Source of the DNA: a virus
Lineage: Duplodnaviria; Caudoviricetes
Length of the DNA: 37,700 nt
IMG/VR virus record: IMGVR_UViG_3300005326_000089
Location: 1-37,700 of that record
Reading direction: 5' to 3' (one strand)
Shown: piece by piece, positions 2,190 to 33,154 of the stretch
How the letters are laid out: each line of letters starts with the position of its first letter
Position numbering within the stretch: position 1 is the stretch's first letter
Notes under the pieces: model-generated
Database searches by the model: none
Seen by the model: the letters and a program-made list of their open reading frames with translations, nothing else
Told to the model about the DNA's origin: nothing
Program-made: the position numbers and the translations under genes

Positions 2190-3400
2190 GTATCGTACAG
2201 CGGGCGGCGCTTTGGGCGGCCTCGAAAGCGCTGGGCGGCACGACCCACGCGCTCACGGATCACGACGCGGTGGCCCGCCTCCTCGGCCACCGCAACGACG
2301 CGGGCGTCCTGGTGACGGAGCAAACGGCGCTTCAGGTTTCCGCCGTGTTCAGCTGCAACCGGGTTCTCTCGGAGACCGTGGGGTCGCTCCCGTGGGCGTT
2401 CTACGAGCGCGACAGCAACGGCAACATGACGAAGATCGACCATGACCTCGGCGCGGTGCTGATCGACATGCCGAATCCGGACATGACCAGCCAAGAGCTC
2501 CGGGAATCGCAAATGCTCCGGCTCGGCCTGTGCGGCAATGCGTACGCCCACATCAGCCGGCGCCGGTTCGACGGGTCCGTTATTTCGGTACAACCGGACG
2601 ACGCGATCGTCCCGCACGTGCGCGACGGCCGCCTCGCTTACAAGCGCGGGAACGAGTGGCTCAACACCGACGACGTGTGGCACCTCAAGGGGTTCGGTAA
2701 TGGCCTCGTCGGCTTGTCCCCGGTGGGCATGGCGCGGCAGGCGTTCGGCCTGGCCCTGGCGACCGAGAGTTTCGGAGCGCGGTTTTTCAAGGAGGGCGCG
2801 TCGGCCGCCGGCATCATCAAAAGCAAAGACTGGCTAAAGGACGACCAGCGGGAGACCGCCCGCAAACTGCTGGCGGAAATGTGGTCGGGCCTCACCAACA
2901 GCCACAAAGTGCAGCTGCTTGAAGGCGGCATGGAGTACCAGTCGATCACGATGCCGCTCGAGGACGCGCAATTTCTGCAGACTCGGAAATTCCAGGTGAC
3001 GGAGGTCGCGCGCTGGTACCGGGTGCCCCCGCATTTGATCGCGGACCTGGACAGGGCCACGTTTTCCAACATCGAGCAACAGGCCCTTGAGTTCGTGCAG
3101 TACACGCTGCTCCCGTATTTCGTCCGTTACGAGCAAACCGTTCGTAAACTCCTGCCCGAGAAAGACCGCGGGCGGATCCTTTTGCGGTTCAACGTCGACG
3201 GGCTCCTGCGGGCAGACTCGACCAGCCGCGCGGGTCTCTATTCCGTTTTGCTGCAGAATGGTGTAATTTCGCGCAACGAGGCCCGCGCGAGTGAGAACCG
3301 CCCGCGGTCGGATGCCCCGGGCATGGACGACTACACGGTGCAAAGCAACATGATCGGGACAACCCAAATCGGGCAACCGCCGCAGGGGGCAGGAAAATGA
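2186..3400 (+). CDS. Portal protein, HK97 family
   Basis: TALQVSAVFSC, GNAYA, GLSPV, DAQFLQTRKF..EVAR.YRVPPHLI, TFSNIEQQ, NEARA.EN motifs. TTG at 2186 gives a TTGA overlap with terL (ORF track starts at 2165). Confidence 0.96.
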   Translation: MSIVQRAALWAASKALGGTTHALTDHDAVARLLGHRNDAGVLVTEQTALQVSAVFSCNRVLSETVGSLPWAFYERDSNGNMTKIDHDLGAVLIDMPNPDMTSQELRESQMLRLGLCGNAYAHISRRRFDGSVISVQPDDAIVPHVRDGRLAYKRGNEWLNTDDVWHLKGFGNGLVGLSPVGMARQAFGLALATESFGARFFKEGASAAGIIKSKDWLKDDQRETARKLLAEMWSGLTNSHKVQLLEGGMEYQSITMPLEDAQFLQTRKFQVTEVARWYRVPPHLIADLDRATFSNIEQQALEFVQYTLLPYFVRYEQTVRKLLPEKDRGRILLRFNVDGLLRADSTSRAGLYSVLLQNGVISRNEARASENRPRSDAPGMDDYTVQSNMIGTTQIGQPPQGAGK

Positions 3401-4038
3401 AAACGCTTCACGCGCCGACCGAGTTCAAAGCGATCGGGGACTCCGGGAGTTTCGAGGGCTACGCCAGCGTCTTCGGGAACGTCGACCTCGGCGGCGACGT
3501 CATCGAGCGCGGGGCGTTCAAAGAGTTCGTAAAGAACGGTGACGGCAAGGTCGTCGTCCTGTGGCAGCACCGCAGCGACTCCCCCCTCGGGGTGGCCGAG
3601 GTGAAGCAGGACGACGCCGGCCTGTATTTTTCCGGGCAACTGGTCCTCGACGACCCGCAGGCGCGGAAGGCGCACGCCCACATGAAAGCCGGTAGCGTGC
3701 GCGGAATGTCGATCGGCTACGACGTCATGGCCGGCGGGGCGGAGGTCCTCAAGAGCGGCATCCGCTCTTTGAAGGCGCTTAAGCTGTGGGAGATCTCGGT
3801 CGTAACGTTCGGGATGAACCCGGCGGCCGGTATCTCCGGAGTGAAGGCGGCGGATATTCGCACGCCTCGAGAATTCGAGACCTTCCTGCGGGACGTGGGG
3901 GGTTACTCGGCGAACCAGGCCAAGGCGATCGCCTCGGAAGGGTTCAAAGCTTTGGACCGTGACACACGGGACGTGTGCACCCCGGAGCAGGTAGCGCAAA
4001 AGCTGGCCGAAGCGATGGCCGAATTCAAAATCCTGTGA
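3397..4038 (+). CDS. Prohead maturation protease, HK97 family
   Basis: FEGYASVFGNVD.GGDVI..GAF, LWQH, GMSIGY, LWEISVVTF.MNP motifs; lies between portal and capsid. Confidence 0.96.
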   Translation: MKTLHAPTEFKAIGDSGSFEGYASVFGNVDLGGDVIERGAFKEFVKNGDGKVVVLWQHRSDSPLGVAEVKQDDAGLYFSGQLVLDDPQARKAHAHMKAGSVRGMSIGYDVMAGGAEVLKSGIRSLKALKLWEISVVTFGMNPAAGISGVKAADIRTPREFETFLRDVGGYSANQAKAIASEGFKALDRDTRDVCTPEQVAQKLAEAMAEFKIL

Positions 4039-4050
4039 GAGGTACACATC

Positions 4051-5367
4051 ATGCAACGTAAATTCCTTTGGGGCCTGGGCGCAATCCTCGGCCTGTTCGC
4101 GTCGGTGGCTTTCGGCGCGGATCCCGCGGCGGCCGCAATCGTCGGCCTGTGCGTCGGAAACATCGAAGTGAAGGACCTGGAAGCGCTCCAAGAGACTCTG
4201 AAAAAGGGCCTCAAGGAAGTCCGCGAGCAGACCGGCGAGAAACTCGAGACCGCGCTGCAGGAGGTCAAAACGATCGGCACCCTGGTCGGCGACACGAACA
4301 AAGAGCTCACGAAGCTCGGCGAAAAGTCCGCGGAAGTTCAGCAGCGACTGCTCGAGGTCGAACAGAAACTGGCACACCGTGGCAACGCCCCGGACCCGCG
4401 CGAGGTCAAGAGCCTCGGCGCGATGGTGTCCGATTCGGACGAGTTCAAGGCGGCCCTTGCGCTGGGCAGCCGCGCGCGCGAAATTGACGCGGTGCAGGTC
4501 GGCAGCTTCCACAAAACCGCGATCATCAACGCCACCGGCCAGAACCAGCCGCTCGTCCCGTCCGATCGCCTCGGCGGCATCGTCACGCCGGCGGAACGCC
4601 TGCTCACCATCCGTTCGCTGATCCCGGTCGGCACCACCGACAGCAACCTCATCGAGTACGCGAAAGAAAACGTTTTCACCAACAACGCGGGCCCGCAGTA
4701 TTCCAGCCCCGCGAAGGAAAACGTCGCCAAGAATGAGTCGGCGATCACCTTCACGCTGGCGACCGCCGCGGTGGTGACGCTGGCCCACTGGATCCCCGCG
4801 TCGCGCCAAGTCCTGGCCGATGCCGGCATGCTGCGCGGCTACATTGACGGCCGCCTCACGTACGGGATGAAGCTCGAGGAGGAGGACGAGATCCTCAACG
4901 GCGACGGCACCGGCGGCAAGCTGGATGGCCTCATCAACCAGGCCACCGCCTACACTGGCGCCACCACCGGCGACCAGGCCCTCGACACCCTGCTGCGCGC
5001 GTTCCTGCAGGTCACGACCGGCAGCGAGTTCGTCGCCGATGGCGCGGTGCTGAATCACGCGGACTGGACCGGTATCCTGCTGCTCAAGGACACCACCGGT
5101 CGTTACCTGTTCGGGGACCCGGGCGCGCAGCAAGCACCGCGCGTGTGGGGCCGTCCGGTGGTGCCGACGAACAGCATGACCGCCGGCAGCTTCCTGGTCG
5201 GTGCCTTCACGCTGGCCGCCCAACTGTGGGACCGCGAGCAGGCCACCATCCGGGTCGCCGAGCAGCATAGCGACTTTTTCGTCAAGAACATGGTCGCCAT
5301 TCTGGCCGAGGAGCGTCTTGCGCTCACCGTGTTCCGCCCGACCGCGCTCGTCAAGGGCACGCTGTAA
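4051..5367 (+). CDS. Major capsid protein, HK97 fold, with delta-domain and a hydrophobic N-terminal leader
   Basis: Coiled-coil N-terminal region, TLAHWIPASRQVLAD, EEDEILNGDGTG, KDTTGRYL, FVKNMVAILAEERLAL.V.RP.A; SD GAGAGG upstream. Confidence 0.96.
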   Translation: MQRKFLWGLGAILGLFASVAFGADPAAAAIVGLCVGNIEVKDLEALQETLKKGLKEVREQTGEKLETALQEVKTIGTLVGDTNKELTKLGEKSAEVQQRLLEVEQKLAHRGNAPDPREVKSLGAMVSDSDEFKAALALGSRAREIDAVQVGSFHKTAIINATGQNQPLVPSDRLGGIVTPAERLLTIRSLIPVGTTDSNLIEYAKENVFTNNAGPQYSSPAKENVAKNESAITFTLATAAVVTLAHWIPASRQVLADAGMLRGYIDGRLTYGMKLEEEDEILNGDGTGGKLDGLINQATAYTGATTGDQALDTLLRAFLQVTTGSEFVADGAVLNHADWTGILLLKDTTGRYLFGDPGAQQAPRVWGRPVVPTNSMTAGSFLVGAFTLAAQLWDREQATIRVAEQHSDFFVKNMVAILAEERLALTVFRPTALVKGTL

Positions 5368-5408
5368 GATGACCGCAGCGGCGGACATGTCCGCGGCGTA
5401 GCGTAACG

Positions 5409-5446
5409 GGGCGGGCCTCTCGCAAGGGGGGCCCGCCCTTTATTTT
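5409..5446 (+). terminator. Intrinsic terminator downstream of the capsid gene
   Basis: 13-bp stem GGGCGGGCCTCTC / GGGGGGCCCGCCC (two G-U pairs) with GCAA tetraloop, followed by TTTATTTT. Confidence 0.85.
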
Positions 5447-5456
5447 GGGAGCAACC

Positions 5457-5834
5457 ATGCAACCTGTGAAAATGATCGTCACCGCCCGCTATATCGGCGA
5501 GGAGGGGTCGAAGCGGCCCGGGGATATCATCCTCGTTACCGAGCGGCGCGCGGCGCAGCTGGAAGCGTCGAGCGCGGCAAAGCGGGAGGGCCTCGAGCTA
5601 AAAAAGCCGAGTTCGCCGGACAGTGGGCCGGCGCAACCGCCTGCATCATCGCAGGCGGCCCCAGCCTTACCGCCGCAGATTGCGAGCACGCAGCCGGCCG
5701 AGGATGGCGCCTCGTCGGTATCAACGACGCCTATCGCATCGCCCCCCGCCTCGACGTCCTCTACGCCTGTGATGGTCGATGGTGGGACGCCCACGAAGCG
5801 CGGGCGCGGGAGGCCGCCCAAGGCGCGCGGTTAG
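5457..5834 (+). CDS. Small head-associated protein (0-frame product, 125 aa): ~50-aa N-terminal domain, Ser/Thr/Pro-rich linker, C-terminal AT-hook
   Basis: SD GGGAG (5447-5451) before ATG 5457; N-terminus VKMIVTARYIGEEGSKRPGDIILVTERRAAQLEASSAAK resembles small post-capsid proteins; ends in TPTKRGRGRPPKARG. Confidence 0.75.
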   Translation: MQPVKMIVTARYIGEEGSKRPGDIILVTERRAAQLEASSAAKREGLELKKPSSPDSGPAQPPASSQAAPALPPQIASTQPAEDGASSVSTTPIASPPASTSSTPVMVDGGTPTKRGRGRPPKARG

Positions 5835-6214
5835 TCACCCGGGACGAGGCCGCCGCCGCGCGCTACGGGCTGGAATGGATCCGTAGCGACAAGGGCCGCG
5901 GCTTGAACCGGGACCCCGCGGTCATCAACGAGGGCGGGAACAGCGGGTATCAAGCCATAAACCTTGCCTATCATGCCGGCGCCCGCCGCATCGTGCTCCT
6001 CGGGTTCGACATGCAACGCACCGCGGGCCGCTCGCACTGGTTCGGAGACCACCCCGGCCGGATGAATGTGCCCAGCCCTTACGAGCAGTGGGTCGCAGCG
6101 TTCCGGCCCCTGGCGGCGGATCTGGCGGCGGAGGGGGTGGAGGTTATCAACGCGTCGAGGGCGACCGCCCTTGATTGTTTTCCGGGGGCGGAGCTTGAAT
6201 CCATTGTTGATTGA
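5457..6214 (+). CDS. -1 frameshift fusion (~252 aa): N-terminal 50-aa domain plus Maf/MptE-like (DUF115; sialyltransferase-like fold) putative glycosyltransferase
   Basis: -1 frame from 5600 reads KKAEFAGQWAGATACIIAGGPSL...LVGINDAYR...VLYACDGRWW...GGNSGYQAINLAYHAGARRIVLLGFDM...HWFGDHP...VEVINAS. The frame is open 5402-6214 with no ATG/GTG/TTG before 5903. Confidence 0.8.
5584..5637 (+). other. Programmed -1 ribosomal frameshift signal (dnaX-like)
   Basis: GGGAGG at 5584-5589, 10 nt upstream of in-frame A AAA AAG (5600-5606); hairpin GTT-CGCCGG(5611-5619)/CCGGCG-c-AAC(5628-5637) downstream. Confidence 0.85.
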
Positions 6215-7052
6215 CGGCATGCACGGGCTGGGGGACAACCTGTACCAGCGAGCGGTACTGCGGGAGTACCACCGCGACCGCGACGTGTACCTCGTGACCT
6301 CGTGGCCGCAGCTATACGCGGATCTCCCGCACGTGCGGCCCGTCCGGCACCCGAACGTTCGCCTACGCACGCAGGCCAAAAACGCCGGAATGCACGGGCA
6401 CCGGTGGCACGCCCCGCCGCCTGGCGCCGAACGCGTCCGCTGGCACTACGCCCCGAGCGGGGGAACGATCCTCGAGAGCCTATGCGCGGGCCTCGGTATC
6501 GCCCCCGCGGCGCTCGATATGGCGGGCCCCGCGGTATCGCCCCCGAGCGGACTACCCGAACGGTACGTCGTCATCCGTCCCGCTACCATCCGGGCGGAGT
6601 GGCGGGCGGATTCCCGCAACCCCCGCCCCGAGTATCTCGCCCTAGCGGCCGAGGCGGCGCGGGCGGCCGGGTATGCCGTGGTAAGCGTGGCGGACCTCAA
6701 GGCGGGCGAGGAATGGGCACTCGACCCCCTCCCACCGGCGGACATGCGGTACCACGCGGGCGAGCTCGTGCTGCCGGACCTGCTCGGCCTCGTGGCAGGC
6801 GCCGCGGCGGTAATCGGCGGAGTCGGGTGGCTCGTGCCGGCGGCTCTTGCGTATCGGCAGCGCATGCTCTTGATTTACGGGGGGTGGGGGTTCCACAATG
6901 GCCCGCAACGGATTTTCGATCGCAGGGTCGACACGTCCGCGATTACGGGCCTGATGCCGGAGCCGTTCTGCATGTGCACGACGCCTGCCCACGCCTGCGA
7001 CAAAACCATAACCGACGTGGAGGCGAAAATTGCTCGATTCTTTGCAAGCTGA
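6195..7052 (+). CDS. Putative glycosyltransferase, GT9 / heptosyltransferase-like (GT-B fold)
   Basis: N-terminal GMHGLGDNLYQ, mid-protein YVVIRPAT...RNP, DLLGLVAGAAAVIGGVGWLVPAALAY..RMLLIYGG and C-terminal PFCMC...C; likely TTG start at 6195 after GGAG. Confidence 0.72.
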   Translation: MNPLLIDGMHGLGDNLYQRAVLREYHRDRDVYLVTSWPQLYADLPHVRPVRHPNVRLRTQAKNAGMHGHRWHAPPPGAERVRWHYAPSGGTILESLCAGLGIAPAALDMAGPAVSPPSGLPERYVVIRPATIRAEWRADSRNPRPEYLALAAEAARAAGYAVVSVADLKAGEEWALDPLPPADMRYHAGELVLPDLLGLVAGAAAVIGGVGWLVPAALAYRQRMLLIYGGWGFHNGPQRIFDRRVDTSAITGLMPEPFCMCTTPAHACDKTITDVEAKIARFFAS

Positions 7053-7647
7053 CCGGCTGCGGTGGTACCCCGAGGTCGGGGTGGGGTACTACCCGGTACC
7101 GCCCGAGGCGGCCCCCTACGACGCCGACTACTGGAACCGATATCGCGCGATGGACCGCACGCCCGCGGGGGATGCTCTGACCGCCGCCCGCCTCGGCCTC
7201 GTCGGTGAATATTTCAACGGGGACGCGGTCGACGTCGGCATCGGCGGCGGACGCTTTGTGGAGGACCGGCCGCGCACGCGCGGGTTCGACGTCAACCCCG
7301 AGGCGGTGGCCTGGCTCAAAGGCACCGGTAGGTGGTGCGATCCGTACGCGGGGCCCGTCGACGCGGCTACGTTTTGGGACTCGCTCGAGCACATCCACGA
7401 CCCCCGCGCGCTGCTCTCGAACGTCCGGTATTATGCGTTCGTGAGCTGCCCGATTTTCCGCGGTCCCGAGCACGTCCTGCGGTCGCGGCATTTCCGCCGC
7501 GACGAGCATGTATGGTACTTTACGCCGGAGGGCATCCGGTGGTTTATGGAGGCGCAGGGGTTCCTGATGGTCGAGCACAACGCAATGGAGCAGGACTGCG
7601 GGCGTGAGGATATCGGCACGTTCGTTTTTGCGAGGGGCGAACAGTGA
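7030..7647 (+). CDS. Class I SAM-dependent methyltransferase (Methyltransf_23-like)
   Basis: YDADYW, motif I VDVGIGGGRF, GFDVNP, FWDSLEHIHDP, EHVWYFT; TTG start with GGAGG at 7019-7023. Confidence 0.82.
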   Translation: MLDSLQADRLRWYPEVGVGYYPVPPEAAPYDADYWNRYRAMDRTPAGDALTAARLGLVGEYFNGDAVDVGIGGGRFVEDRPRTRGFDVNPEAVAWLKGTGRWCDPYAGPVDAATFWDSLEHIHDPRALLSNVRYYAFVSCPIFRGPEHVLRSRHFRRDEHVWYFTPEGIRWFMEAQGFLMVEHNAMEQDCGREDIGTFVFARGEQ

Positions 7648-8252
7648 CGACGTATCTAAAGCGCACCGTAACGGCAGTCTCCGAGGTCATGACCTTGCAA
7701 GAGGCGTACCGCCATTGCAGGGTCGACGGGTACGGGGAGAGTCCCCCGCACGAGGACGACGCGCTTATCGCCGACCTCATCCCCGCCGCGCGCCAGCACG
7801 CCGAGAATTTCACCGGCCGCGCGTTCATCGCCTCCACGTATGAGCAGCGGGCGGACTACCTGGCGGACGTGCTGCCCCTCAAGGTCCTACCGGTGCGGGC
7901 GGTCTCGTCCGTCGAGTACGTCGACCAGGACGGAGTCGTGCAAACGCTCGACCCGACGCTCTACGTGTTTGACGACAATCCCACCGCCCCCACCATCCGG
8001 CGCGCGTATCAAGCGATCTACCCGGCAACGCGCGGCGAGGTCGGGGCGGTGCGGATCCACTACACCGCGGGCCCTACGGATGGCACCAGTCCCGACGACG
8101 ACCCGCTCCCACGCACCGCCTACCAAGCGATGGCCCTCATTCTGGCGAGCCTGTACGAGCACCGGGAGGACACAGTCGTCGGCACCACGGCAACCGAGTT
8201 GCCGCTCGGGGCCGCTGCGCTGCTCCGGCCGCTGCGGGTATCGATCCTATGA
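7644..8252 (+). CDS. Head-tail connector (gp6 / phiE125 gp8-like)
   Basis: MTLQEAYRHCRVD..EDDALI..LI.AARQHAENFTGRAFI, SLYEHRE, LPLGAAALLRPLR. Confidence 0.88.
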   Translation: MTTYLKRTVTAVSEVMTLQEAYRHCRVDGYGESPPHEDDALIADLIPAARQHAENFTGRAFIASTYEQRADYLADVLPLKVLPVRAVSSVEYVDQDGVVQTLDPTLYVFDDNPTAPTIRRAYQAIYPATRGEVGAVRIHYTAGPTDGTSPDDDPLPRTAYQAMALILASLYEHREDTVVGTTATELPLGAAALLRPLRVSIL

Positions 8253-9992: not shown

Positions 9993-10321
9993 GCGGCCAA
10001 CTGACGAACGCGGCCGCTTTTTTCGCGGCCGCCACGCTGGCGGAGAGCGACGTTCATCTGCCGGACGGGCTTACCGTCCGCGTGCGGGAGCTGTCGATCC
10101 TGCAGCGGGCGGAGTTCTCACGCAAAGCTAAAGAGGACCCGGTCGAGGCGGGCGCTTGGCTGTGTGCGCAAGCGTGCCTTGATTCGCAGGGGTTCCGTAT
10201 GTTCGCGGACGACCAGGTTGGGGACCTGATGCTCGGCTCGCCCCGGCTGGTCGAGCACGTAGCGTGGGCGGTTATGCGCCTGTCTGGGATGTCAAAGGGC
10301 GACGAAGCGGGAAACGATTAA
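9989..10321 (+). CDS. Tail assembly chaperone (gpG-like)
   Basis: ATGA coupling to the tube gene; V.VRELS motif; ends ...AGND with slippery G GGA AAC. Confidence 0.82.
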   Translation: MSGQLTNAAAFFAAATLAESDVHLPDGLTVRVRELSILQRAEFSRKAKEDPVEAGAWLCAQACLDSQGFRMFADDQVGDLMLGSPRLVEHVAWAVMRLSGMSKGDEAGND

Positions 10322-22320: not shown

Positions 22321-22639
22321 GAGGAACCGCCTGGTAAAACGGGACCAGCGTGCAGCCGCGGCGGACTTCCGAGACGCGGCGGACCAGTCCGTACTCAATA
22401 CAGCAGCGGAGAGTGTGACGCGTGTTGTCGACCTCGGAGCCGATGTGCGCCGCGATGGTCTTGCACTCACGCATCCGGCCGTCCTCAAGGAAGTCGAGCA
22501 CTTTACGCATGGTCGGGCCGATACGCTTACGCCCGGGCAGGGAGCGAGGTTTCGCGGCCGGGAAGGCGGCGAGCTGTGACAGGAGGGACGGGAGTGCGAC
22601 CCGATGCCCGAGCTGTTCGGCGATGCTGGGAATGCTCAT
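22307..22639 (-). CDS. Hypothetical, possible winged-HTH DNA-binding protein
   Basis: ATGA coupling to the polymerase stop; KVLDFLEDG....KTIAAHIG......RHTL....EYGLVRR is wHTH-like. Confidence 0.55.
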   Translation of the reverse strand: MSIPSIAEQLGHRVALPSLLSQLAAFPAAKPRSLPGRKRIGPTMRKVLDFLEDGRMRECKTIAAHIGSEVDNTRHTLRCCIEYGLVRRVSEVRRGCTLVPFYQAVPHDDE

Positions 22640-24930
22640 TTCCGGTATCTCCTCCCGCGCCAGCCCCCCGACGCGCGTATCGGCCAGTCGTGCGCCCACG
22701 GGGGCATCGTGGACATGATGCGTTCAAACTCCTCGACGCTGCCGAACCCGTGCGGGACCTCGGCGACGTCCTCGTCATACACATGCAAAACGATCGGGTA
22801 CCCGGCCGCCTCGAGGTTCCGCATTCCGTACCACTGGATATCTCGCGCGGTGGCCTGAACGACGTTCTCGGTGAGCCGGCCGCCCCATGTGTCCATGCGG
22901 ATCCAGCCGACCGGGCCGTTCTTTGGGTTCGTGTTCCAGCCTTCGTAACTGATCGCGTACCCGGGGTCGCGCGTCGATGGCGACAGGCGCGGGCGGTGGT
23001 ACGTCAGCAGGCGCCCCGAGAGCAGGCGGCAGAAAAGCGCGTCGCTCGAGGCGAGGTAGTAGTACCCAATGCCGCGGAAGTCAAACCACTGGCCGGGGGA
23101 CAGCACCGCCTGGACGACGCAGCCCTCGAGGCCGAAATACTCCTGCCGATAGTCCGGGTCCCACGGGCGGCCGCGGAATTGACCGCCCCAAAATTCCACG
23201 ATGGCTGGGCTGTCCGCCCTCCACTTGAGGATGGCCCGCTTGATCTCGTCGTCCGTACCTTCAGCACCGAACGCGCGCCATGCCCCGACCCACCCCTGGT
23301 ATCCGGAGGCGAGCTCGGCCACCTTGCCTATTTTCTTGCGGGCGGGGTGGTGCTGGCCGGTCTCGGCTTTGTGGCGTAGAAACTCCTCGAACGGGATGCC
23401 AGTGATTTGCGAGGCCGACATTTCATAAATCTTGCCGTGGCCGCGGAATACCTCCATTCGCCATTCCTCTCCGGCGAGGGCGGCCAACACGACCGCCTCG
23501 ATCGCGGAGTAATCCGAGCAGATAAGGTCGTGGCCCGGGGCCGCCACAAAGAGCCCCCGCAGGCATGCCGCAATGACCGGCACCACCTGGCCCACGCCCC
23601 ACACGTACTCCCCCCACTCGAGCGAGCCGACGGCCAGCGACGCCAGTGCGTCCTCTACCGCCTCGGGGCACCACTCGACCGTGCTGGACGCCCAGCCGGG
23701 CCCGCCGCAGTGGGGGCACGAGGCGAGGGCCTTGCCGTAATGCTTGCCACACGTGGCGTCCGCGCACCGGCGCACCTCGGGCCCGCTGTTCGGCAGGTTC
23801 GTCGGCTGCGGGCCGGCGCCGGTAGTGCGGCCGGTGCGGGCAGCGTGGAACAGGAACAGGTCGTGCAGCCGGTCGGCGCGCGTGGCCTGGTGCTCCATCG
23901 CATAGAGCTTTTTGACGGCGGCCGAGCCGATGGCCTGGCGGATCTCAAGGGCGCGGCGCACATGCGGCGGGAGCGGCCCGCCGAGGGCAGCGTCTAGCGC
24001 GTCCTCATCAGCGGCCGGAAGATGCACGCCGGCGCCGGCGCACCATGCGACCAGCTTCTGCAACTCGCTCGCGGCCTGCACCGTCCCGCCGGTAAGGGCC
24101 TGCAGTTCCGCGTTGTACCGGGCGTGCGCCTGCTCGAGAACGGCAATGCACGAGCGCACCGCGGCCCGGTCGATCGCCACACCGCGGCGGTTTATGCGCT
24201 GGTCCATTTGCCAGTTCTGGAACTCGTCCGGCGAGAGATCCGGCACCGCGGCGGAAACGGCCGCCTCGGCGGCGATATCCTGGGCGTTGTAGGCGTAGAG
24301 CGCGGCGGCGCCTTCCGGGTCGGTCTCGGGACGGATGCGGCGGCGCGGGTCTTTCTTCGTGGGATTGCGCGGCTTGCTGAATTTATCTAGCAGCCGCTTA
24401 CCGTCTTTGTCCTTCTGCACGTCGAGCCCGAGCACCGCTCCGGCATTACCGAGCGCTCCGGGCAGCCCGAACGCGCGGGCCTTTGCCATCGCGCACCGCA
24501 GCTGCTCGCGCGGGAGAGGCGGCCAGTTGAGGCGGGGCGCGCACACGTTGCCCCACACCCAGCTCTCAAACCCCACATTCCACGCCTCGAGCAGCCCACC
24601 GCGGCCGATGTGGGCGAACAGGTCGACCGGCGGTAGCTGTCCGGGGCGCCAGTGGCGGCGGCCGCGGCCGTCCTTGAGGTCATAGGCGAGCGACAGCACC
24701 TCGCAGGAGGGCGCCTCGGAGTACACGGCCGCCCCCACCGCCGGGAGGCCACGGTTCTGGTCCCCGTACCCGGGCAGCGACCGCCACTTGTTCGCGGCCT
24801 CGTCCCATCGGTACCCTGCCTCCGAGTAGGTCTCAAAGTCGAAGTCGGGGAGGACGGTAGCAACGCCGAGCGCGGCGCGCATCTGGTAGCCGGCGGGGAG
24901 TTCCTCGAGGCGGGGCGGGGGAGGCAACAT
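22636..24930 (-). CDS. polA: Family A DNA polymerase with 3'-5' exonuclease domain
   Basis: Exo I DFETYS, AWNVGFE, YNAQD; ARTGR, QPTNLP, motif A DYSAIEA, motif B RKKIGKVAELASGY, ENVVQATARD, motif C LHVYDE. Confidence 0.95.
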   Translation of the reverse strand: MLPPPPRLEELPAGYQMRAALGVATVLPDFDFETYSEAGYRWDEAANKWRSLPGYGDQNRGLPAVGAAVYSEAPSCEVLSLAYDLKDGRGRRHWRPGQLPPVDLFAHIGRGGLLEAWNVGFESWVWGNVCAPRLNWPPLPREQLRCAMAKARAFGLPGALGNAGAVLGLDVQKDKDGKRLLDKFSKPRNPTKKDPRRRIRPETDPEGAAALYAYNAQDIAAEAAVSAAVPDLSPDEFQNWQMDQRINRRGVAIDRAAVRSCIAVLEQAHARYNAELQALTGGTVQAASELQKLVAWCAGAGVHLPAADEDALDAALGGPLPPHVRRALEIRQAIGSAAVKKLYAMEHQATRADRLHDLFLFHAARTGRTTGAGPQPTNLPNSGPEVRRCADATCGKHYGKALASCPHCGGPGWASSTVEWCPEAVEDALASLAVGSLEWGEYVWGVGQVVPVIAACLRGLFVAAPGHDLICSDYSAIEAVVLAALAGEEWRMEVFRGHGKIYEMSASQITGIPFEEFLRHKAETGQHHPARKKIGKVAELASGYQGWVGAWRAFGAEGTDDEIKRAILKWRADSPAIVEFWGGQFRGRPWDPDYRQEYFGLEGCVVQAVLSPGQWFDFRGIGYYYLASSDALFCRLLSGRLLTYHRPRLSPSTRDPGYAISYEGWNTNPKNGPVGWIRMDTWGGRLTENVVQATARDIQWYGMRNLEAAGYPIVLHVYDEDVAEVPHGFGSVEEFERIMSTMPPWAHDWPIRASGGWRGRRYRK

Positions 24931-24936
24931 GTCGCG

Positions 24937-25149
24937 TTATACCCTTCCGAGTTCGGCATCGACCAAGTGTGCAATCATGTGCGGATGGTGGCCGAGCGGA
25001 ACTTCGTCTCGGTACCGTGCGAGCAGGATGTGCAGCCGTCTCACCTTGTCCTGAAGGGCGATCTCTTTAGCGGTGGTTGCCTGTGTCACCTGCGAAAGCT
25101 CAAGAAAGAGCCGGTCTATCGTTTCGGTTTCCATACCTTCTTCTCCCAT
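24937..25149 (-). CDS. Hypothetical protein
   Basis: IDRLFLELSQVT..TTAKE; start may be the ATG at 25134. Confidence 0.6.
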   Translation of the reverse strand: MGEEGMETETIDRLFLELSQVTQATTAKEIALQDKVRRLHILLARYRDEVPLGHHPHMIAHLVDAELGRV

Positions 25150-25188
25150 TCAGCCACCGGGCATAACTCGGCGGTCAAGCGCGACGGG

Positions 25189-25308
25189 CTAAAGCCCGCC
25201 CCTTTGCTGGTCCTCGAGCTCGATCGCATCCAGGCGCGCGCGGAACATCCGGGACCCCCCGTAACAGAGCAGAGCGGCGAGCACGGCAAGTGTGAAAGCT
25301 ACGTCCAT
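25189..25308 (-). CDS. 39-aa single-TM peptide (MDVAFTLAVLAALLCYGGSRMFRARLDAIELEDQQRGGL), not in the ORF track
   Basis: AAGGGG SD upstream; fills the operon gap; hydrophobic N-terminus. Confidence 0.55.
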   Translation of the reverse strand: MDVAFTLAVLAALLCYGGSRMFRARLDAIELEDQQRGGL

Positions 25309-25319
25309 CGTCGTCCCCT

Positions 25320-25868
25320 TTATGCGGTAAGCCGGAGGCCGGCGCGAACCAGATCCGCCACGAGCGCGTTTCCGGCTGCGACGGGGAGGTCACGGGGGGC
25401 CGCGACGGGTGCCGGGATGAGGTCCGCGAACTCGGGGAAAACCTCCCGCAACTTTTCGTCGGTGGTGCAAAAGTCAGCAACCGCGCGAACACGGGCGAGC
25501 AATGCGCGGCGCTCCTGCTTACGCTGTTTCCACGAGTCAAAGTGCGCGAACGCGGCTTCGTCCCTCGCGGCCTTCTGCTCGGGGTTCTCCGCGTCGGCTA
25601 TGTAGGTCGTTTGCAGCTGGTACGGTGCGCGGGAGTCAAATAGGGCTTTTTCCTCCTCGCTAAGGTACTTGAGGTTCGCGACGGTGCGGTCGACGAACCG
25701 CGGGTATTTCTCGGCGAACGCCCTTACCTCCGCGGGGAGGACACTTTCCGCCGCGCGGCGCACCGGGGAGGCAAATTCAGCTTGCCAGTCGAAGTCGGGA
25801 AGCGGGGGAAGCTTACGCCCCACCGCCGCGACAAACGCCTCCCGGCGCTCTTTGGTCAGTCTTGCCAT
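25320..25868 (-). CDS. Nmad5-like (nucleotide modification associated domain 5) protein
   Basis: RLTKERREAFV, LPAEV, AVADFCTT..KL...FPEF..LIP, LPV....LVADL..AG pattern. Confidence 0.65.
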   Translation of the reverse strand: MARLTKERREAFVAAVGRKLPPLPDFDWQAEFASPVRRAAESVLPAEVRAFAEKYPRFVDRTVANLKYLSEEEKALFDSRAPYQLQTTYIADAENPEQKAARDEAAFAHFDSWKQRKQERRALLARVRAVADFCTTDEKLREVFPEFADLIPAPVAAPRDLPVAAGNALVADLVRAGLRLTA

Positions 25869-26011
25869 TTTTCCAGCCTCGTTTCGTAGCGGCCGCACAG
25901 TCCGCAAAGGTACCGGCGGCCTTCCTTGTGGGAGACCCCGCGCACCGTCCGGCGGATTACGACCACTTTGTCGACGTACCACCAGACATGGGCGCACGGG
26001 GCGAGGGTCAC
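25856..26011 (-). CDS. Small Cys/His (Zn-ribbon-like) protein
   Basis: GTGA coupling to the SSB stop; C.HVW...C..CG. Confidence 0.55.
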   Translation of the reverse strand: MTLAPCAHVWWYVDKVVVIRRTVRGVSHKEGRRYLCGLCGRYETRLEKWQD

Positions 26012-26937
26012 GCTTGCATCATCCCATGTTGGATGAGCAGGGCGTCGGTCCAACCGGCCGCAACCATCGCCTCATACGTGGCGCCCTGCGCGGCGGGGAG
26101 CATGACGCGCGCGGGGGCGGCCGGCGGCGGCGGGGGCTGCAGGATGGCCGGGTTAGGGACGATCGGCGGCGCAACCGTGGCCGCCGCCACGACGGCCGGG
26201 GTCATCGCGGGGGGCGTCACCGCTGCAGCGGGCGTGGGCACGTACGGGGCGCCAACGGCCGGGACCGGCGAGCCGGCAGGCGGGGCGGGATTGAAAGGGG
26301 CGGAGACCGGCACCGCCGAGGCGCCAGCGGGCAGCGCACCGCCACCGAAACCAACGGCCGCCGCGTCCGGGCCGACCACGATCTCGGGGCCGTACGCGGA
26401 CAGGGCGACCATGCCGTGGTTAAGGAATACCCCGGGCTGCTGCAACGAGCCGTTACCGGACACACTGCCGAATACCTGGACGTAGTAGCCGAGCTTTACC
26501 GCGTTCTCCTCGAGCAGCTGCTGCGACCCGTCCGCGTTATAAATCTTGGGCGCGAAACCGGACGAGAACGCCAGGACCCAATTCCCCTTATAGCCTTCAC
26601 GATCGCACGGCTTTTTGCCCAAGCTGTTCGGGACCTGGCTATCCCCGTCCGTCACCTTCCAAGCGAAGGTCGGAGCGTTGCCCTGGCCTTGCGGGAAAGC
26701 GGCATGACCGGCGGCCCAAATCTTTTGGCCCCACGGGGTTTGCGACCAGTGCTGCTCCTGCCCCTTGGGGATGGCGAGGGCGAAGAAGAAGTCGACGCGG
26801 GGCTGGCCGGCCTGCGGGCCGGACTTGATTACCAGCGGGCGGCCCTCCGCGTCGGTCGTTTGGGCTTTGTACAGGGACCCGGCGACCAGACGGCCAACGG
26901 GGGTGAGTAGGTCGGTGCGGTCGGTGCGAGTTGCCAT
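26008..26937 (-). CDS. ssb: ssDNA-binding protein (DUF2815 / T7 gp2.5-like) with Pro/Ala linker and small C-terminal domain
   Basis: LTPVGRLV.GSL, FAWKVTDGDS, GYKGNWVL..SS, GYYVQV, PGVFLN; GGAG SD; sits in the PolA / Cas4-like module. Confidence 0.8.
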   Translation of the reverse strand: MATRTDRTDLLTPVGRLVAGSLYKAQTTDAEGRPLVIKSGPQAGQPRVDFFFALAIPKGQEQHWSQTPWGQKIWAAGHAAFPQGQGNAPTFAWKVTDGDSQVPNSLGKKPCDREGYKGNWVLAFSSGFAPKIYNADGSQQLLEENAVKLGYYVQVFGSVSGNGSLQQPGVFLNHGMVALSAYGPEIVVGPDAAAVGFGGGALPAGASAVPVSAPFNPAPPAGSPVPAVGAPYVPTPAAAVTPPAMTPAVVAAATVAPPIVPNPAILQPPPPPAAPARVMLPAAQGATYEAMVAAGWTDALLIQHGMMQA

Positions 26938-26972
26938 GAGTTTATGCTCCGGTGGTAAGTGGTACGACTACA

Positions 26973-27004
26973 AATTAACGACTATTGACGGGGGTGTCAA
27001 TAGT
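26973..27004 (-). promoter_or_regulatory. Sigma70-like promoter for ssb, overlapped by a 9-bp inverted repeat
   Basis: Minus strand TTGACA-17-TAATTT; ACTATTGAC-N6-GTCAATAGT at 26981-27004. Confidence 0.75.
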
Positions 27005-27163
27005 GCAGTTGACGCGGGTTTGTCCGGTTTGCCAGTAGCCGCGCTTCTGGCACGCTTCGACTACCGCGGAATCCCACGACCACGGCTTCGCGGCGAGCGT
27101 TCCGCCGAAAGCCACCGCGCCCACGAGGGCAAATATGACGGCAAAGCCTGCGAAGTCTTCCAT
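26975..27163 (-). CDS. Small membrane protein
   Basis: AGGAGG SD; MEDFAGFAVIFALVGAVAFGG TM segment. Confidence 0.65.
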   Translation of the reverse strand: MEDFAGFAVIFALVGAVAFGGTLAAKPWSWDSAVVEACQKRGYWQTGQTRVNCTIDTPVNSR

Positions 27164-27164
27164 G

Positions 27165-28262
27165 CTAGTTACCTCCTGAAAAGGTACGCCGAGCGAGCGA
27201 CCCGTCGTCCGGCACAAGCTTTGCGGCACCGCGCGGCCGCTCTGCGCAGCTGGCGACCACCGCATCGGGCATGCCGGCCTTGCGAGCCTGGCCCGGGGTG
27301 ATAGCGGCGGGGGGTTTGGCGAGGTCGACCCCCAGCATCGAGCCGAGCGCGATAACCTGCGGTGCTGGAACCGACCACCGCTCGCGCCCCGACCCCGCCT
27401 CGAGCCGGTACCCCGGCACGGGCGCCCCGCCCTTGAGGAGCGCGGTTACCTGCTCCTCGAGGCCCGTAACGCGCGCGGCGATGCGCTCCGCGGCGCGGTG
27501 CAGCAGGCGGAGCTCGAGCGCGGCATGCGCGGGCGAGAGTTCCACCGGGAGGCCGCCCACGAGGCCAACGTCGGCATGCGTGAGCGTGGTGTACTGCAGG
27601 GCCGCGCAAGCGTGGCGCCCGTCGCAGTCCTGGCAACCGGCCGAGACTTGCAGCATGTCGTCGGGGGCGTGCGCAGCCCCGCTCAAGATATTGATGAGCG
27701 GCCGGAGGTCCGAGGCCATGCACGACCACGTCCGCACCGGGCCGTCGCGGTGGTAGGCGCGGGGCTGCACGATGTGGAAATTAACGCGGGTATGTTGATC
27801 GGCCAGCCCGTCGACGCTCGCCGCGCGCAGGATGCCCGAGGCGTAGCACACGAGTTGATCGTTCTGGAACGGGTCGACCGGGCGGTGGCCGTACTTGAGG
27901 TCATAGACGTCGAGCACGCCAGGGGTGTAGCGGTAGGCGTCCGGGGTGCCCCAGCACTCGGGGTGGATATCGGGGCACGCGACCGGAGTCTCGAGCACCG
28001 CACCGGGCCCCACGAGGTCCGCCCACACTTCCGCGGCATCGAGCATTTCGTCATCGACCTCGACCCCGTTCGGCGCGATCGTCCCGGCCGCTACCGGGCG
28101 GCCTTGCGCTACCTCTGCGGCGGCCCAATGCGCGGCGGTGCCTTCCTCCGCCTCGGGGCCGGACGGCCGAGCGTAGCGGCGGGCCATCGCCCGAGACCCC
28201 GGGCAGCGCTTCCACACGTGCGCAGCGGAGGGGGCGTAGGCGGAATGCTGTCCGGGGGCCAC
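27165..28262 (-). CDS. DUF2800 / Cas4-like PD-(D/E)XK exonuclease
   Basis: HS..APSAA..W..CPGS, EEGTAAH, WGTPDA, VYDLKYG, N.QL.CYA, HIVQPR, C..C.....C. Confidence 0.88.
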   Translation of the reverse strand: MAPGQHSAYAPSAAHVWKRCPGSRAMARRYARPSGPEAEEGTAAHWAAAEVAQGRPVAAGTIAPNGVEVDDEMLDAAEVWADLVGPGAVLETPVACPDIHPECWGTPDAYRYTPGVLDVYDLKYGHRPVDPFQNDQLVCYASGILRAASVDGLADQHTRVNFHIVQPRAYHRDGPVRTWSCMASDLRPLINILSGAAHAPDDMLQVSAGCQDCDGRHACAALQYTTLTHADVGLVGGLPVELSPAHAALELRLLHRAAERIAARVTGLEEQVTALLKGGAPVPGYRLEAGSGRERWSVPAPQVIALGSMLGVDLAKPPAAITPGQARKAGMPDAVVASCAERPRGAAKLVPDDGSLARRTFSGGN

Positions 28263-28264
28263 GG

Positions 28265-29032
28265 TTACAGCCCCAGCATCGTGGCGACAGACGGCACGAG
28301 GTCGGGGCGCGCGGCGAGGGCCGGGAGCGTGGGGACGCCCACCGCCTGGCACGCCTCGAGGACTCCCGCCTGCGTGAGAGTGCCGGCCGCGATAGCCGCG
28401 CTCGCAGCAGTCAGCAGGGCGGCGAAGCTAGAAGGGCTCGCACCAATCGCACCACCAACGGGGGCCGCCGGAGCAGCGGGGGCGCCAGTCGGCGGGGGCG
28501 CAGGGACGGCCGCAACCGGCACAGTAGGGGCGGGCGGCACCGGGGCGGCGGGCGCACCCTGGGCGGCGCGCAGTTCGTTCTCGACTTGGGTGACGTACGC
28601 CGCGTCGGTCCCGCGCTTCTGACGCCACGACCCGTCCTGCAGTTTGGCGCGCGTGCTGGCGTGGATTCGGCCGTCCCACGGCAGGCCGCGGTTATCCAGC
28701 TCTACGCTACCGGCCGGGAGCGGGGGTGCGGGTGGCGCAACATTCGCGGGGGCTGACGGCAGCGGGACCACGTTCGTCGGTGCTTGAGAAAAAACCGTCG
28801 ACGCCTCGGGGGCAATCGGCGGCGCTTCGGCAACCGCAGTGCAGAGGACAACGGTTGCCGGCGGGGGCACCAAAGGGGCAGCGTGGGCCTCCTTGGTTTC
28901 GGTCGGGCCGGCAACCGTGATCGCGAGGGGGGTACCGGTTGCACCATCCGCCAGCGTTTGAAGCATGAGAATTACCGCGTTCGCCTCCTCGCGGGACAGG
29001 GCGGCCGGGTCCGAGATGCGGATTTCGAGCAT
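28265..29032 (-). CDS. Conserved replication-module protein (Pro/Ala-rich)
   Basis: LDNRGLPWDGRIHASTRAK..DGSWR.KRG core; GAGGA SD; first gene of the leftward operon. Confidence 0.7.
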   Translation of the reverse strand: MLEIRISDPAALSREEANAVILMLQTLADGATGTPLAITVAGPTETKEAHAAPLVPPPATVVLCTAVAEAPPIAPEASTVFSQAPTNVVPLPSAPANVAPPAPPLPAGSVELDNRGLPWDGRIHASTRAKLQDGSWRQKRGTDAAYVTQVENELRAAQGAPAAPVPPAPTVPVAAVPAPPPTGAPAAPAAPVGGAIGASPSSFAALLTAASAAIAAGTLTQAGVLEACQAVGVPTLPALAARPDLVPSVATMLGL

Positions 29033-29062
29033 CGTTTATTCCTCGTAGGTATTTCGTCGGGA

Positions 29063-29107
29063 TTGACGTGGCCGAATGTTGCCGCTTATTATTCGTCCCG
29101 TCAATAG
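29063..29107. promoter_or_regulatory. Overlapping divergent sigma70-like promoters
   Basis: Rightward TTGACG(29063)-18-TATTAT(29087); leftward TTGACG(29104-29099)-17-CAACAT(29081-29076); located exactly at the strand switch. Confidence 0.7.
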
Positions 29108-29122
29108 CGGAGGTCGAAAATT

Positions 29123-29647
29123 ATGGATGCCGGAAAATTTGTGGAACTGCTGCGTTTCGTATCCCATGCCGTCGACCAGGGCGAACGGCGCGAACCGTTG
29201 CGGGGCGTACTATTCGAGTTCCGGGCGCCCGATCGCCTGGTGCTCGTGGGGACGGACGGAGCACGATGCGCAATCGCTCGCGTGCAGCACCCCCACATGA
29301 TGCCGGATTGCGATCTGATCGTATCGAACGCAGCGGAAATTTGCGCGGCCTTTGAAGGAACGCCCGGGGAGGTGGTTTTCTTTGGGGACAGCGTAATGGA
29401 CATGACGGGCCGCAGCGTGAAATTAATCACGCTATTCGGCATTTATCCGGATTGGCGCAAGGCGGTCGATGTGCTCGGGCGGGAGACTCACGTAGCGGTG
29501 CAACCACGCTACGTGGCCGAGGCCGCAACGACGATGCCGGCGGGCCCGGTTGTTGCGCGGGCGGTGCGAGTCTCCGGCGGCCCCGCGCTCGAAATGCAGG
29601 CGGCGGACGACCGCGCGCGCGTCATTATCATGGCGGTGCGGCAGTGA
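29123..29647 (+). CDS. DNA polymerase III beta-clamp (DnaN) central-domain-like protein
   Basis: HAV...ERREPLRGVLFE....LVLVGTDGAR and GIYPDWRKAV match DnaN R..L.GV...VATDGHRL and G.YPDY.RV; GGAGG SD. Confidence 0.68.
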   Translation: MDAGKFVELLRFVSHAVDQGERREPLRGVLFEFRAPDRLVLVGTDGARCAIARVQHPHMMPDCDLIVSNAAEICAAFEGTPGEVVFFGDSVMDMTGRSVKLITLFGIYPDWRKAVDVLGRETHVAVQPRYVAEAATTMPAGPVVARAVRVSGGPALEMQAADDRARVIIMAVRQ

Positions 29648-31275: not shown

Positions 31276-31276
31276 T

Positions 31277-31477
31277 ATGAGACACCAACACACGTGCAAA
31301 CGGCAGGGCCCCCGCGGAGTAGCGACGGTCGTGCTCGTACAGAACGGTTACAAGCCGGGGACGCGAGAGCCCCACATGGTCGAGCACCGCACCGACTGGC
31401 TGCCGATCGCGTGCGGGTACCTCGCGCGAGCAACGGATAACGACTGCGGGCAATGCCCGAATAGGAGCAGGCAATGA
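31277..31477 (+). CDS. Small Cys-rich hypothetical protein
   Basis: 66 aa; ATGA coupling to the next gene; C..C near the C-terminus. Confidence 0.55.
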   Translation: MRHQHTCKRQGPRGVATVVLVQNGYKPGTREPHMVEHRTDWLPIACGYLARATDNDCGQCPNRSRQ

Positions 31478-31953
31478 TCGAATGGAACGGCGGCAAAATG
31501 CCGGTCGACGGCACGACGGCGGTACGGTTCCGGCTACGCAACGGGTGCGAGGGCCTGGCGCAAGCGGGGTGCCTGCGGTGGCAGCACGCGGAACCGGCGT
31601 CGCTCGCGGCCGACCGGGACCTCGTGGCGTACAAGGTAGCACCGTCGGGCCCGGTGGCCCCCGCGCCTCACCTCCAGCCCCCGACCGCAGCGGAGATCCT
31701 ACGGGCCGCCCTCGGCCACATGGAGGACCGGGCCGCCACCTACGACGCCCCGAGCGGCGAGCGCAGCGTTCCGGCGGTCGTGGCGGCGTTCGCTGCGGTG
31801 ACGGGGGTCAAGCTCACGCCAGAACAGGGATGGCTGTTCCTGGTGCTGCTCAAGGCGGTGCGCAGCCAGCAGGGCAGCTACCGCGCGGACAACTACGAGG
31901 ACCTCGCAGCGTACGCCGGACTCATGGGGGAGGCCGCGGCATGCTCGCGCTGA
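31474..31953 (+). CDS. DUF6378-like protein with an N-terminal small phage domain
   Basis: AAEIL..A..HMEDRA.TYD...GERS, GWLF..LLK.VR, DNYED..AYAGL; N-terminal IEWNGG.MPV...W.H...D.VAYK. Confidence 0.7.
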   Translation: MIEWNGGKMPVDGTTAVRFRLRNGCEGLAQAGCLRWQHAEPASLAADRDLVAYKVAPSGPVAPAPHLQPPTAAEILRAALGHMEDRAATYDAPSGERSVPAVVAAFAAVTGVKLTPEQGWLFLVLLKAVRSQQGSYRADNYEDLAAYAGLMGEAAACSR

Positions 31954-32414
31954 CCGCGTGGGCGGCCCGGTGGGGCATCCCGGCCGATGCGCTCGCCGAC
32001 CTGCAAGCGGTCATTACCACCGACCCGGGCGTAGCACCCAGCGTGGCCCGCAACGAGGCGGACGTGCAGGCGGCCATCCGGCTCGAGGCGTCCCGCAAGG
32101 GGCTGCGCCTGTGGCGTAACAATGTGGGCGTGCTGACGGACGACCGCGGGGTGCCGGTGCGCTACGGTCTCGCCAATGACTCCGCGGCGGTCAATGCGTC
32201 CATCAAGTCGGCGGACCTCATCGGCATCCGGCCGGTACTCATCACCTCCGCCCACGTGGGGGCCACGCTGGGGCAGTTTGTCTCCCGCGAGTGCAAGGCG
32301 CCCGGGTGGAAGTACCGCGGCGGCGAGCGGGAGGCGGCGCAATTGCGCTGGGCCGAGATCGTTACCGCGCTCGGCGGCGACGCGCGGTTTGCAGCCGGGG
32401 AGGGCACGCTATGA
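31941..32414 (+). CDS. VRR-NUC nuclease (resolvase-like)
   Basis: NEADVQ..IRL, LWRNNVG, RYGL, SADLIG, F..RECK, Q.RW...V...GG.A.F. Confidence 0.85.
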   Translation: MLALTAWAARWGIPADALADLQAVITTDPGVAPSVARNEADVQAAIRLEASRKGLRLWRNNVGVLTDDRGVPVRYGLANDSAAVNASIKSADLIGIRPVLITSAHVGATLGQFVSRECKAPGWKYRGGEREAAQLRWAEIVTALGGDARFAAGEGTL

Positions 32415-33064: not shown

Positions 33065-33154
33065 GGCGTTGTCTCCCCATAACAGATATTGACGTACTGC
33101 AATTCTGATATAGGTCAACACCGTTAATTTTTCACTATTTATAGGCGTAACGAA

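Follow-up and report, generated by a model that had tools for sequence, protein, structure and literature searches.

We predict that the gene following the major capsid gene of an uncultured phage contains a programmed -1 ribosomal frameshift site (A_AAA_AAG), which, on the strength of sequence comparisons, is very probably real and used. The whole stretch of DNA analyzed (i.e., the window; 37,700 nt of IMG/VR record IMGVR_UViG_3300005326_000089) belongs to an HK97-type siphophage, with genes for terminase, portal, protease, capsid, neck, and tail proteins identified by profile searches and a G+C content of 66.9%. The best overall explanation, which we regard as reasonably probable, is that the frameshift yields two products, and that the longer one is a Maf-like enzyme that would glycosylate virion proteins together with the enzymes encoded by the next two genes. 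The following features of the window (all on the + strand) are needed for the argument.

4051 to 5367, + strand: gene for the HK97-type major capsid protein (PF05065, E = 6e-55).
5407 to 5444, + strand: terminator-like hairpin and T run (putative function), between the capsid and module genes.
5457 to 5834, + strand: zero-frame open reading frame (ORF) of 125 aa (N-terminal module, S/T/P/A-rich linker, and basic AT-hook-like end).
5457 to 5597, + strand: shared module of ca. 47 aa (DUF7210/L9-N/gpFI-C-like), similar to the N termini of fused homologues.
5584 to 5589, + strand: internal Shine-Dalgarno (SD)-like GGGAGG, a predicted stimulator 10 nt ahead of the heptamer.
5600 to 5606, + strand: slippery heptamer A_AAA_AAG in the -1 register, followed by CC.
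5606 to 6214, + strand: -1 frame encoding a 202-aa Maf/Cst-II-like glycosyltransferase domain without a start codon of its own.
5611 to 5658, + strand: two predicted hairpins (5611 to 5637 and 5637 to 5658), 3' of the slip site.
5796 to 5822, + strand: KRGRGRPPK in the zero-frame product, a motif which we take to be AT-hook-like.
6207 to 7052, + strand: second glycosyltransferase (GT-B fold, TibC/GT9-like), the start of which overlaps the -1-frame stop codon.
7030 to 7647, + strand: S-adenosylmethionine (SAM)-dependent methyltransferase with an uncertain start (PF13489, E = 6e-9; phrog_6564, E = 1e-73).
7644 to 8252, + strand: gp6-like head-tail adaptor, the end of the cassette (PF05135, phrog_442).

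Elsewhere, the window encodes its own DNA polymerase, single-stranded-DNA-binding protein, exonuclease, helicase, methyltransferase, and primase (22636 to 36950), and the record is 78% complete. No integrase was found among the 29 ORFs scanned in the window. An ordinary tail-chaperone -1 site (G_GGA_AAC, 10309 to 10315, + strand) lies just ahead of the stop of the chaperone gene and opens a T frame that ends at 10635; together with the post-capsid site, this makes two predicted -1 sites for the phage.

The zero frame at positions 5598 to 5609 reads CTA AAA AAG CCG, which sets A_AAA_AAG in the -1 register. A first-pass annotation, made from the sequence alone, had described this in-frame CTA AAA AAG together with an SD sequence (GGGAGG) 10 nt upstream and a hairpin at 5611 to 5637, and we located all three base by base. 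The spacing between SD sequence and heptamer is also 10 nt in Escherichia coli dnaX. The -1 frame is open from 5402 to 6214, and its first ATG, GTG, or TTG codon is the TTG at 5903, again as the annotation had stated; this codon lies 297 nt beyond the start of the enzyme domain. Recomputed product lengths (125 aa for the zero-frame protein and 50 + 202 = 252 aa for the predicted fusion) equal those claimed. The ATG of the zero-frame ORF is preceded by GGGAG (5447 to 5451), and the terminator-like hairpin upstream of it has a z value of -3.70 (0 of 200 shuffles equally stable; RNAfold, 5380 to 5450). On the + strand, the window contains two AAAAAAG strings, at 2172 and 5600. The core of the first hairpin 3' of the slip site (CGCCGG at 5614 to 5619 pairing with CCGGCG at 5628 to 5633) extends to 5611 to 5637 and is unremarkable by itself (z = -1.27; 18 of 200 shuffles equally stable), while the 56-nt stretch with both hairpins has a z value of -2.32 (3 of 200 shuffles). 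According to two recoding papers, CC is the most shift-prone dinucleotide 3' of a heptamer, shift efficiency depends on the Lys tRNA set of the host (PMC5009743), and A_AAA_AAG and C_CCA_AAG are both among the top three motifs by efficiency in E. coli (PMC4066793).

The -1 frame without a start codon encodes a genuine domain. The profile phrog_4603 (annotated "sialyltransferase") matches residues 15 to 201 of the -1 frame from its own first position (E = 9.5e-49), which bears out the proposal that a coherent domain begins right after the slip site, and 1,393 proteins match this domain. The model of P0001, a homologue in which module and enzyme are fused in a single frame, has a pLDDT of 95, and its best structural match is Maf (5MU5; Z = 15.8; rmsd, 3.0; 180 aligned residues), followed by MptE (Z = 11.2), SteA (10.8), a Campylobacter sialyltransferase (9.8), and mammalian sialyltransferases (8.2 to 9.5); these searches used the fused model and so barely probe the module by itself. 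Taken with phrog_4603, the Maf fold supports the Maf/MptE/Cst-II-like glycosyltransferase signature noted in the first-pass annotation. Of the references that it had proposed for comparison (PF01973, Maf, and Cst-II), the Maf fold was recovered, PF01973 matched the -1 frame below its gathering cutoff (E = 1e-6; 29.2 bits versus 34.6), and Cst-II matched by sequence with E = 0.8.

The two closest homologues, P0001 (65% identity) and P0002 (59%), carry the module and the enzyme in a single frame, i.e., the in-frame fusions that the annotation had suggested looking for. The module of the window is 47 to 50% identical to their N termini (first 50 residues). The phage of P0002 has the gene order of the window: its capsid gene is followed by the fused gene, and then come the genes for the same second enzyme, the methyltransferase, and the adaptor. 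No slippery site was found at the fused gene. The fused P0001/P0002 lineage forms the sister branch of the window (SH-aLRT, 95; quick tree). These relatives indicate that the joined module-enzyme protein is a natural form; since their lineage has no separate short product, the latter is not universally needed.

A slip site within a homopolymer of an uncultured contig, with the nearest relatives fused in frame, might reflect misassembly or the recent breakage of a fused gene, a reading that we consider extremely improbable. Four public sequencing runs hold the stretch (as DNA contigs only), and contigs bridging the junction are present in X1 (which may be the run behind the record itself), X3, and X4 (not in X2); all of these cross the A run without an indel, including that of an X4 strain that is ca. 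94% identical to the window, and an assembly error of the A run, which the annotation had named as something to check, is thereby ruled out. The X4 contig covers 5380 to 6256, with 48 differing letters and three gaps (5426, 5711, and 5714). For the 39 of 67 rows of this comparison that were scored for codon effects, 8 of 11 changes within 5607 to 5902 (i.e., ahead of any start codon) are silent in the -1 frame, and 7 of 9 changes in the overlap alter the zero-frame protein. Another X4 contig carries AAAAAAGCCG in matching register. Decay is further opposed by the coincidence of SD sequence, heptamer, and open basic tail at one locus and by the 39 other clusters that share the layout.

To survey the family, we gathered 269 loci, dropped 11 without the anchor motif, and grouped the remaining 258 into 76 clusters at 70% identity. 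Classes were assigned from start codons only, the frameshift class being defined by an ATG-led zero-frame ORF that overlaps the domain and by the lack of a nearby ATG in the enzyme frame. This -1 layout was found in 40 of the 76 clusters, the window among them, a count that retains one probable false member (L150; without module and without motif). The mirror layout was seen alone in 2 of 76 clusters and mixed with an own start in 2 more, and a zero-frame ORF plus an own ATG in 2 of 76. Because the clusters are related, they do not represent 40 independent origins; a quick tree requires 16 changes of the frameshift label, 5 of them enforced by strongly supported branches, and 8 changes for fusion, with 3 so enforced.

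In 32 of the 40 frameshift clusters, no ATG, GTG, or TTG occurs from the last stop to the domain, while in the other 8, including that of Pseudomonas phage D3, a GTG, TTG, or distant ATG precedes the GPS motif in the enzyme frame. These 8 clusters, the ATC codons just ahead of the GPS motif of the window (5645 and 5648; others in the -1 frame are at 5720 and 5738), and the existence of stand-alone versions with an ATG of their own (PAJU2 ORF10 and P1/P7) would fit translation of the enzyme from a rare start (ATC here; GTG or TTG in relatives) or by reinitiation, with incidental slippery sites. We consider independent translation very unlikely given the 32 clusters without a start, the lack of an SD sequence ahead of ATC 5645 and ATC 5720 (the two inspected), the joined protein made naturally by the fused relatives, and the 20-fold enrichment of heptamers, confined to the -1 register, described below.

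Slippery sites were searched in a stretch from 32 to 7 codons ahead of the GPS motif (bounds chosen once the data had first been inspected), and expected counts were derived from control genes at the same loci. Canonical heptamers occur in register in 22 of the 40 clusters against 1.1 expected (out of register, 8 and 5), which answers positively the question of whether homologous phages conserve such a site; any X_XXY_YYZ occurs in register in 28 of 40 (2.1 expected). In the other classes, the corresponding numbers are 4 and 8 of 34. The 12 frameshift clusters without a heptamer are left with tetramers. Shift-prone tetramers, ranked after PMC4066793 (as far as accessible), lie in register in 39 of 40 clusters (12.9 expected) and are also common out of register (22 and 24 of 40). 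C_CCA_AAG is kept in all 68 D3-like loci (D3-like prophages; 54 distinct haplotypes). Six loci outside the counts share the layout (L274-L282, L294, and L297; some repeat earlier contigs), with the sites C_CCA_AAA, G_GGA_AAC, T_TTT_TTT/A, A_AAA_AAA, A_AAA_AAG, and G_GGA_AAA.

Two alternative sites occupy one position, ca. 28 codons ahead of the GPS motif, in the largest freshwater-type cluster (L020; 56 loci). Its 47 distinct haplotypes carry A_AAC_CCY (31), C_CCA_AAC (13), or a bare C_CCY (3), and the codon preceding AAC ends in A whichever amino acid it encodes (CTA, GTA, TTA, ACA, GAA, GCA, or ATA). The commonest site of this cluster (A_AAC_CCN) is absent from the high-efficiency motifs in the accessible part of PMC4066793.

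The annotation had likened the whole layout to that of dnaX, and this comparison holds for the heptamer and the SD sequence of the window, where a hairpin is also predicted (with the modest z values given above), but not for the family. Only 3 of 28 family sites have a strong SD sequence, and only 5 of 28 have a hairpin with z below -2 (mean z, -0.76; p = 0.10; D3 site, -0.67). Family-wide SD or hairpin stimulators were not found in this 28-site survey; the combination of SD sequence and hairpin is specific to the lineage of the window. As these signals are not conserved, many relatives may shift only weakly. The dnaX-like signal set of the window is the most complete among the sites examined, which makes it a good candidate for a reporter assay.

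Junctions with runs of nine A's were seen in L023, L088, L153, L175, and L179, and in these lineages transcriptional slippage could act instead of or beside ribosomal slippage. As a general explanation of the join, slippage of the polymerase on the A run, which would account for nine A's in 5 and eight A's in 2 of the 40 clusters, appears highly improbable to us, since the run of the window has six A's only and most relatives use mixed heptamers (e.g., C_CCA_AAG and C_CCT_TTC), on which polymerase slippage is impossible.

Further variants of the layout were observed. In Tetraselmis viridis virus S20 (Caudoviricetes; HQ632857; L305), C_CCT_TTG lies in register at 2462 to 2468, after a long post-capsid gene, and the annotation of the enzyme begins at an internal start codon. 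In L152 (P0295), another domain, which we read as glycosyltransferase-like, is fused in frame ahead of the module; the module then has C_CCT_TTC leading into the Maf-like frame, possibly giving a three-part protein. No NCBIfam match was obtained for the six proteins searched, which included L152/P0295 and the 125-aa protein of the window. GenBank annotates orf7 of D3 from within the enzyme domain.

The short product also leaves a signature in the overlap. The zero frame stays open for at least 15 codons beyond the GPS motif in 36 of the 40 frameshift clusters versus 14 of 34 others (p = 1e-5), and no comparable difference in openness between these groups was found in the third frame. In 30 of 33 versus 9 of 26 cases (background, 17 of 108), the Leu codon of GPSL is one that does not create a stop in the zero frame. 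Zero-frame tails are more basic in frameshift clusters (p = 2e-5), with RGRP in 9 of 40 and in none of the 34 others; the AT-hook-like terminus of the 125-aa protein had gone unmentioned in the first-pass annotation. The zero frame is thus, like the -1 frame, under selection, in its case to remain open and to finish with a basic tail. A profile built on the module retrieves 479 proteins. Of the top 150, 145 are short; 118 lack the overlap signature, and 100 of these have a basic patch at their end. Because module proteins are mostly short and end in this way, the module with its basic tail looks like an ancestral protein that was kept by the overlap.

The 125-aa protein of the window matched neither a Pfam nor a PHROG profile. 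DUF7210 (PF23843) is matched by 3 of 36 family members, and the module weakly resembles the GINS B-domain, L9-N, and the C-terminal domain of lambda gpFI, for which two weak hhalign comparisons gave P values of 0.002 and 0.00015 (probabilities of 14% and 52%). 2LSM was not among the profile matches of the module, and the ESM Atlas returned no usable match for it. The gene for lambda gpFI is likewise located directly 3' of the capsid gene (lambda map), and the C-terminal domain of gpFI binds the capsid protein. The roles of the gpFI domains are said to have been described by Popovic in 2012. The accessible text of PMC13595911 describes gpFI as a bridge between the capsid and the terminase-DNA complex.

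Among clusters with enough DNA, 30 of 32 with the frameshift layout and 4 of 29 others have a capsid gene upstream, although distant capsids can be missed in this count, as the capsid of the window served as the query. The next gene (6207 to 7052; phrog_6804, E = 2e-88) was modeled with a pLDDT of 96.8 and has a GT-B fold with TibC as the best match (E = 4e-8; TM, 0.57), the lipopolysaccharide (LPS) heptosyltransferases WaaC/WaaF ranking behind it. Maf and TibC are protein O-glycosyltransferases. The family of this second enzyme has a GLGD motif and a C-terminal Cys cluster (invariant G7-D10, C255, C257, H262, and C264), and D3 and PAJU2 carry the same pair of TibC-like enzyme and methyltransferase. 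In a scan of the 26 loci with 2 kb downstream (Pfam on 56 of 82 ORFs and PHROGs on 16 of those), the next genes are sugar-related, glycosyltransferase, or methyltransferase genes in 16 (the window included), directly neck genes in 6, and others in 4. Neighbors include GT2 and other glycosyltransferases, FkbM methyltransferases, and a GDP-mannose dehydratase (L101). Radical-SAM genes follow the enzyme in two frameshift loci (L023, 6018 to 6950; L267, 5237 to 7531), one of them with an intein.

Stand-alone homologues also occur outside head operons (P1 pmgO, and Citrobacter phage phiNP beside lysis genes), which argues against a strict link with the head operon. In phiNP (L304), an unannotated enzyme copy (2501 to 3603) lies directly ahead of an annotated paralogue; lysis genes and terminase genes flank the location, which has no slippery site, and P7 has two tandem paralogues (hdmB and hdmC). 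According to the accessible portion of PMC10695390, pmgO of P1 is nonessential. Virion glycans have been reported in mycobacteriophages (Freeman 2023, as cited in the accessible part of PMC12619734), and Cluster O phages carry a glycosyltransferase/methyltransferase cassette within the head operon (PMC4351075, in the part available).

A real frameshift might also yield an enzyme whose target is not a virion protein: it could modify phage DNA during packaging or, late in infection, an LPS or pilus receptor of the host, or carry out a phospho-group transfer of the MptE type. The resemblance of the module to the nucleic acid-binding L9-N, the AT-hook-like end of the short product, the fold shared with MptE and with thiamine pyrophosphokinases (Z = 7 to 9), the place of WaaC/WaaF next after TibC, and the known phage glycosyltransferases acting on DNA and on the host surface (PMC12619734, accessible part) are all compatible with such a role. 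We nevertheless consider a nonvirion target rather unlikely, because the gene keeps its head-operon position in 30 of 32 clusters, Maf and TibC are the top-ranked matches of the two enzymes, the neighbors are of the kinds listed above, and the enzyme domain lacks a strongly hydrophobic stretch.

We therefore retain virion glycosylation after a -1 frameshift as the working model. The frameshift fusion as such is supported by the fused homologues, the in-register sites across 40 clusters, the independent assemblies, and the Maf-like fold. In the model, both Lys tRNAs would slip back one base at A_AAA_AAG, aided by the SD sequence and the hairpins, and a minority of ribosomes would read on into the enzyme frame to produce the 252-aa fusion, so that the frameshift would set a low ratio of enzyme to helper. 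The short product would carry on an ancestral post-capsid job, helping in assembly or packaging as a small protein whose module binds the head and whose tail binds DNA; we suggest this role tentatively, from the analogy with lambda gpFI, which is encoded at an equivalent place. The shared module may carry the enzyme to the prohead or head, a docking suggested by the gene position and the weak likeness to gpFI. There, the enzyme would take a sugar from a nucleotide-sugar of the host and attach it to Ser/Thr residues on a virion protein, and the TibC-like enzyme and the methyltransferase would extend or cap the glycan. We lean slightly toward this part of the model, i.e., that a module-targeted enzyme glycosylates a virion protein at the head and that the other two enzymes add to or cap the glycan. 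It is quite possible, though somewhat less likely than not, that a gpFI-like helper now serves to address an enzyme that glycosylates the capsid, with the zero frame retaining the basic DNA-binding tail of the helper and the -1 frame supplying the targeted enzyme in a small amount, and that phages of Proteobacteria such as D3 have glycan-coated virions that have gone unnoticed.

To our knowledge, phage annotation knows one broadly conserved frameshift, that of the tail chaperones. The site described here would be a second conserved one, located in the head operon. This frameshift hides the N-terminal half of the enzyme in public records, as for D3 orf7 and the S20 gene, which are annotated from internal starts. 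Since D3 is cultured, whether virions of phages of Gram-negative hosts are glycosylated can be tested directly, and virion glycosylation bears on the recognition of phages by hosts and immune systems. In addition, the frameshifted, fused, and stand-alone forms provide a natural series for studying the evolution of recoding sites and overlapping frames. No description of a post-capsid frameshift was found in the literature searched (including the accessible parts of PMC5009743, PMC3711429, PMC4066793, PMC10885494, and PMC13088612), a search that did not extend to the GeneTack, Sharma, and PRFect supplementary tables or the original D3, PAJU2, gpFI, and Freeman papers, which could list it.

The individual elements have parallels in known systems. 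The enzyme family shares its fold with Maf (5MU5), Cst-I/II (GT42), and MptE (PF01973) (Z = 15.8, 9.8, and 11.2, respectively), as well as the motifs GPSL...N...SG...A...G...I.L.G.D, but it is only 11 to 14% identical to them, consists of a single 200-aa domain instead of 630 aa, and falls below the Pfam cutoff. Mycobacteriophages with glycosylated virions also have glycosyltransferase and methyltransferase genes in the head operon (PMC12619734 and PMC4351075, accessible parts); their hosts are actinobacterial, their enzymes appear to belong to other families, and those parts mention neither a frameshift nor a targeting module. The gene for lambda gpFI directly follows the capsid gene, as in the window (PMC13595911, accessible part), but the match to the module is weak (14 to 52%), the domain order is reversed, and gpFI involves neither a frameshift nor an enzyme.

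As for the recoding itself, a -1 shift in the head module adds a C-terminal domain in T7 (10A/10B) and, reportedly, in the major head protein of Lactobacillus phage A2, as it would here. These shifts extend the capsid protein itself, with Ig-like display domains, whereas that of the window extends a separate small gene with a predicted catalytic domain. The -1 frameshift of the tail assembly chaperones is said to have been described by Xu, Hendrix, and Duda in 2004. Like the G/GT shift (PMC10885494, in the part accessible), the present one combines a conserved position in a virion operon, variable heptamers, and a shared N terminus. It follows the capsid gene rather than lying between the major tail and tape-measure genes, its long product is a predicted enzyme, and its zero frame overlaps the enzyme frame by up to 86 codons. 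With the dnaX (tau/gamma) and IS3-family sites of E. coli, the window shares A_AAA_AAG and, as candidate stimulators, an upstream SD sequence and predicted 3' hairpins (PMC5009743 and PMC4066793, accessible parts). Yet the dnaX shift truncates a protein while that of the window extends a small protein with an enzyme, and the stimulators are not conserved across its family. The frameshift of the window thus works like those of dnaX and the tail chaperones but is neither of them.
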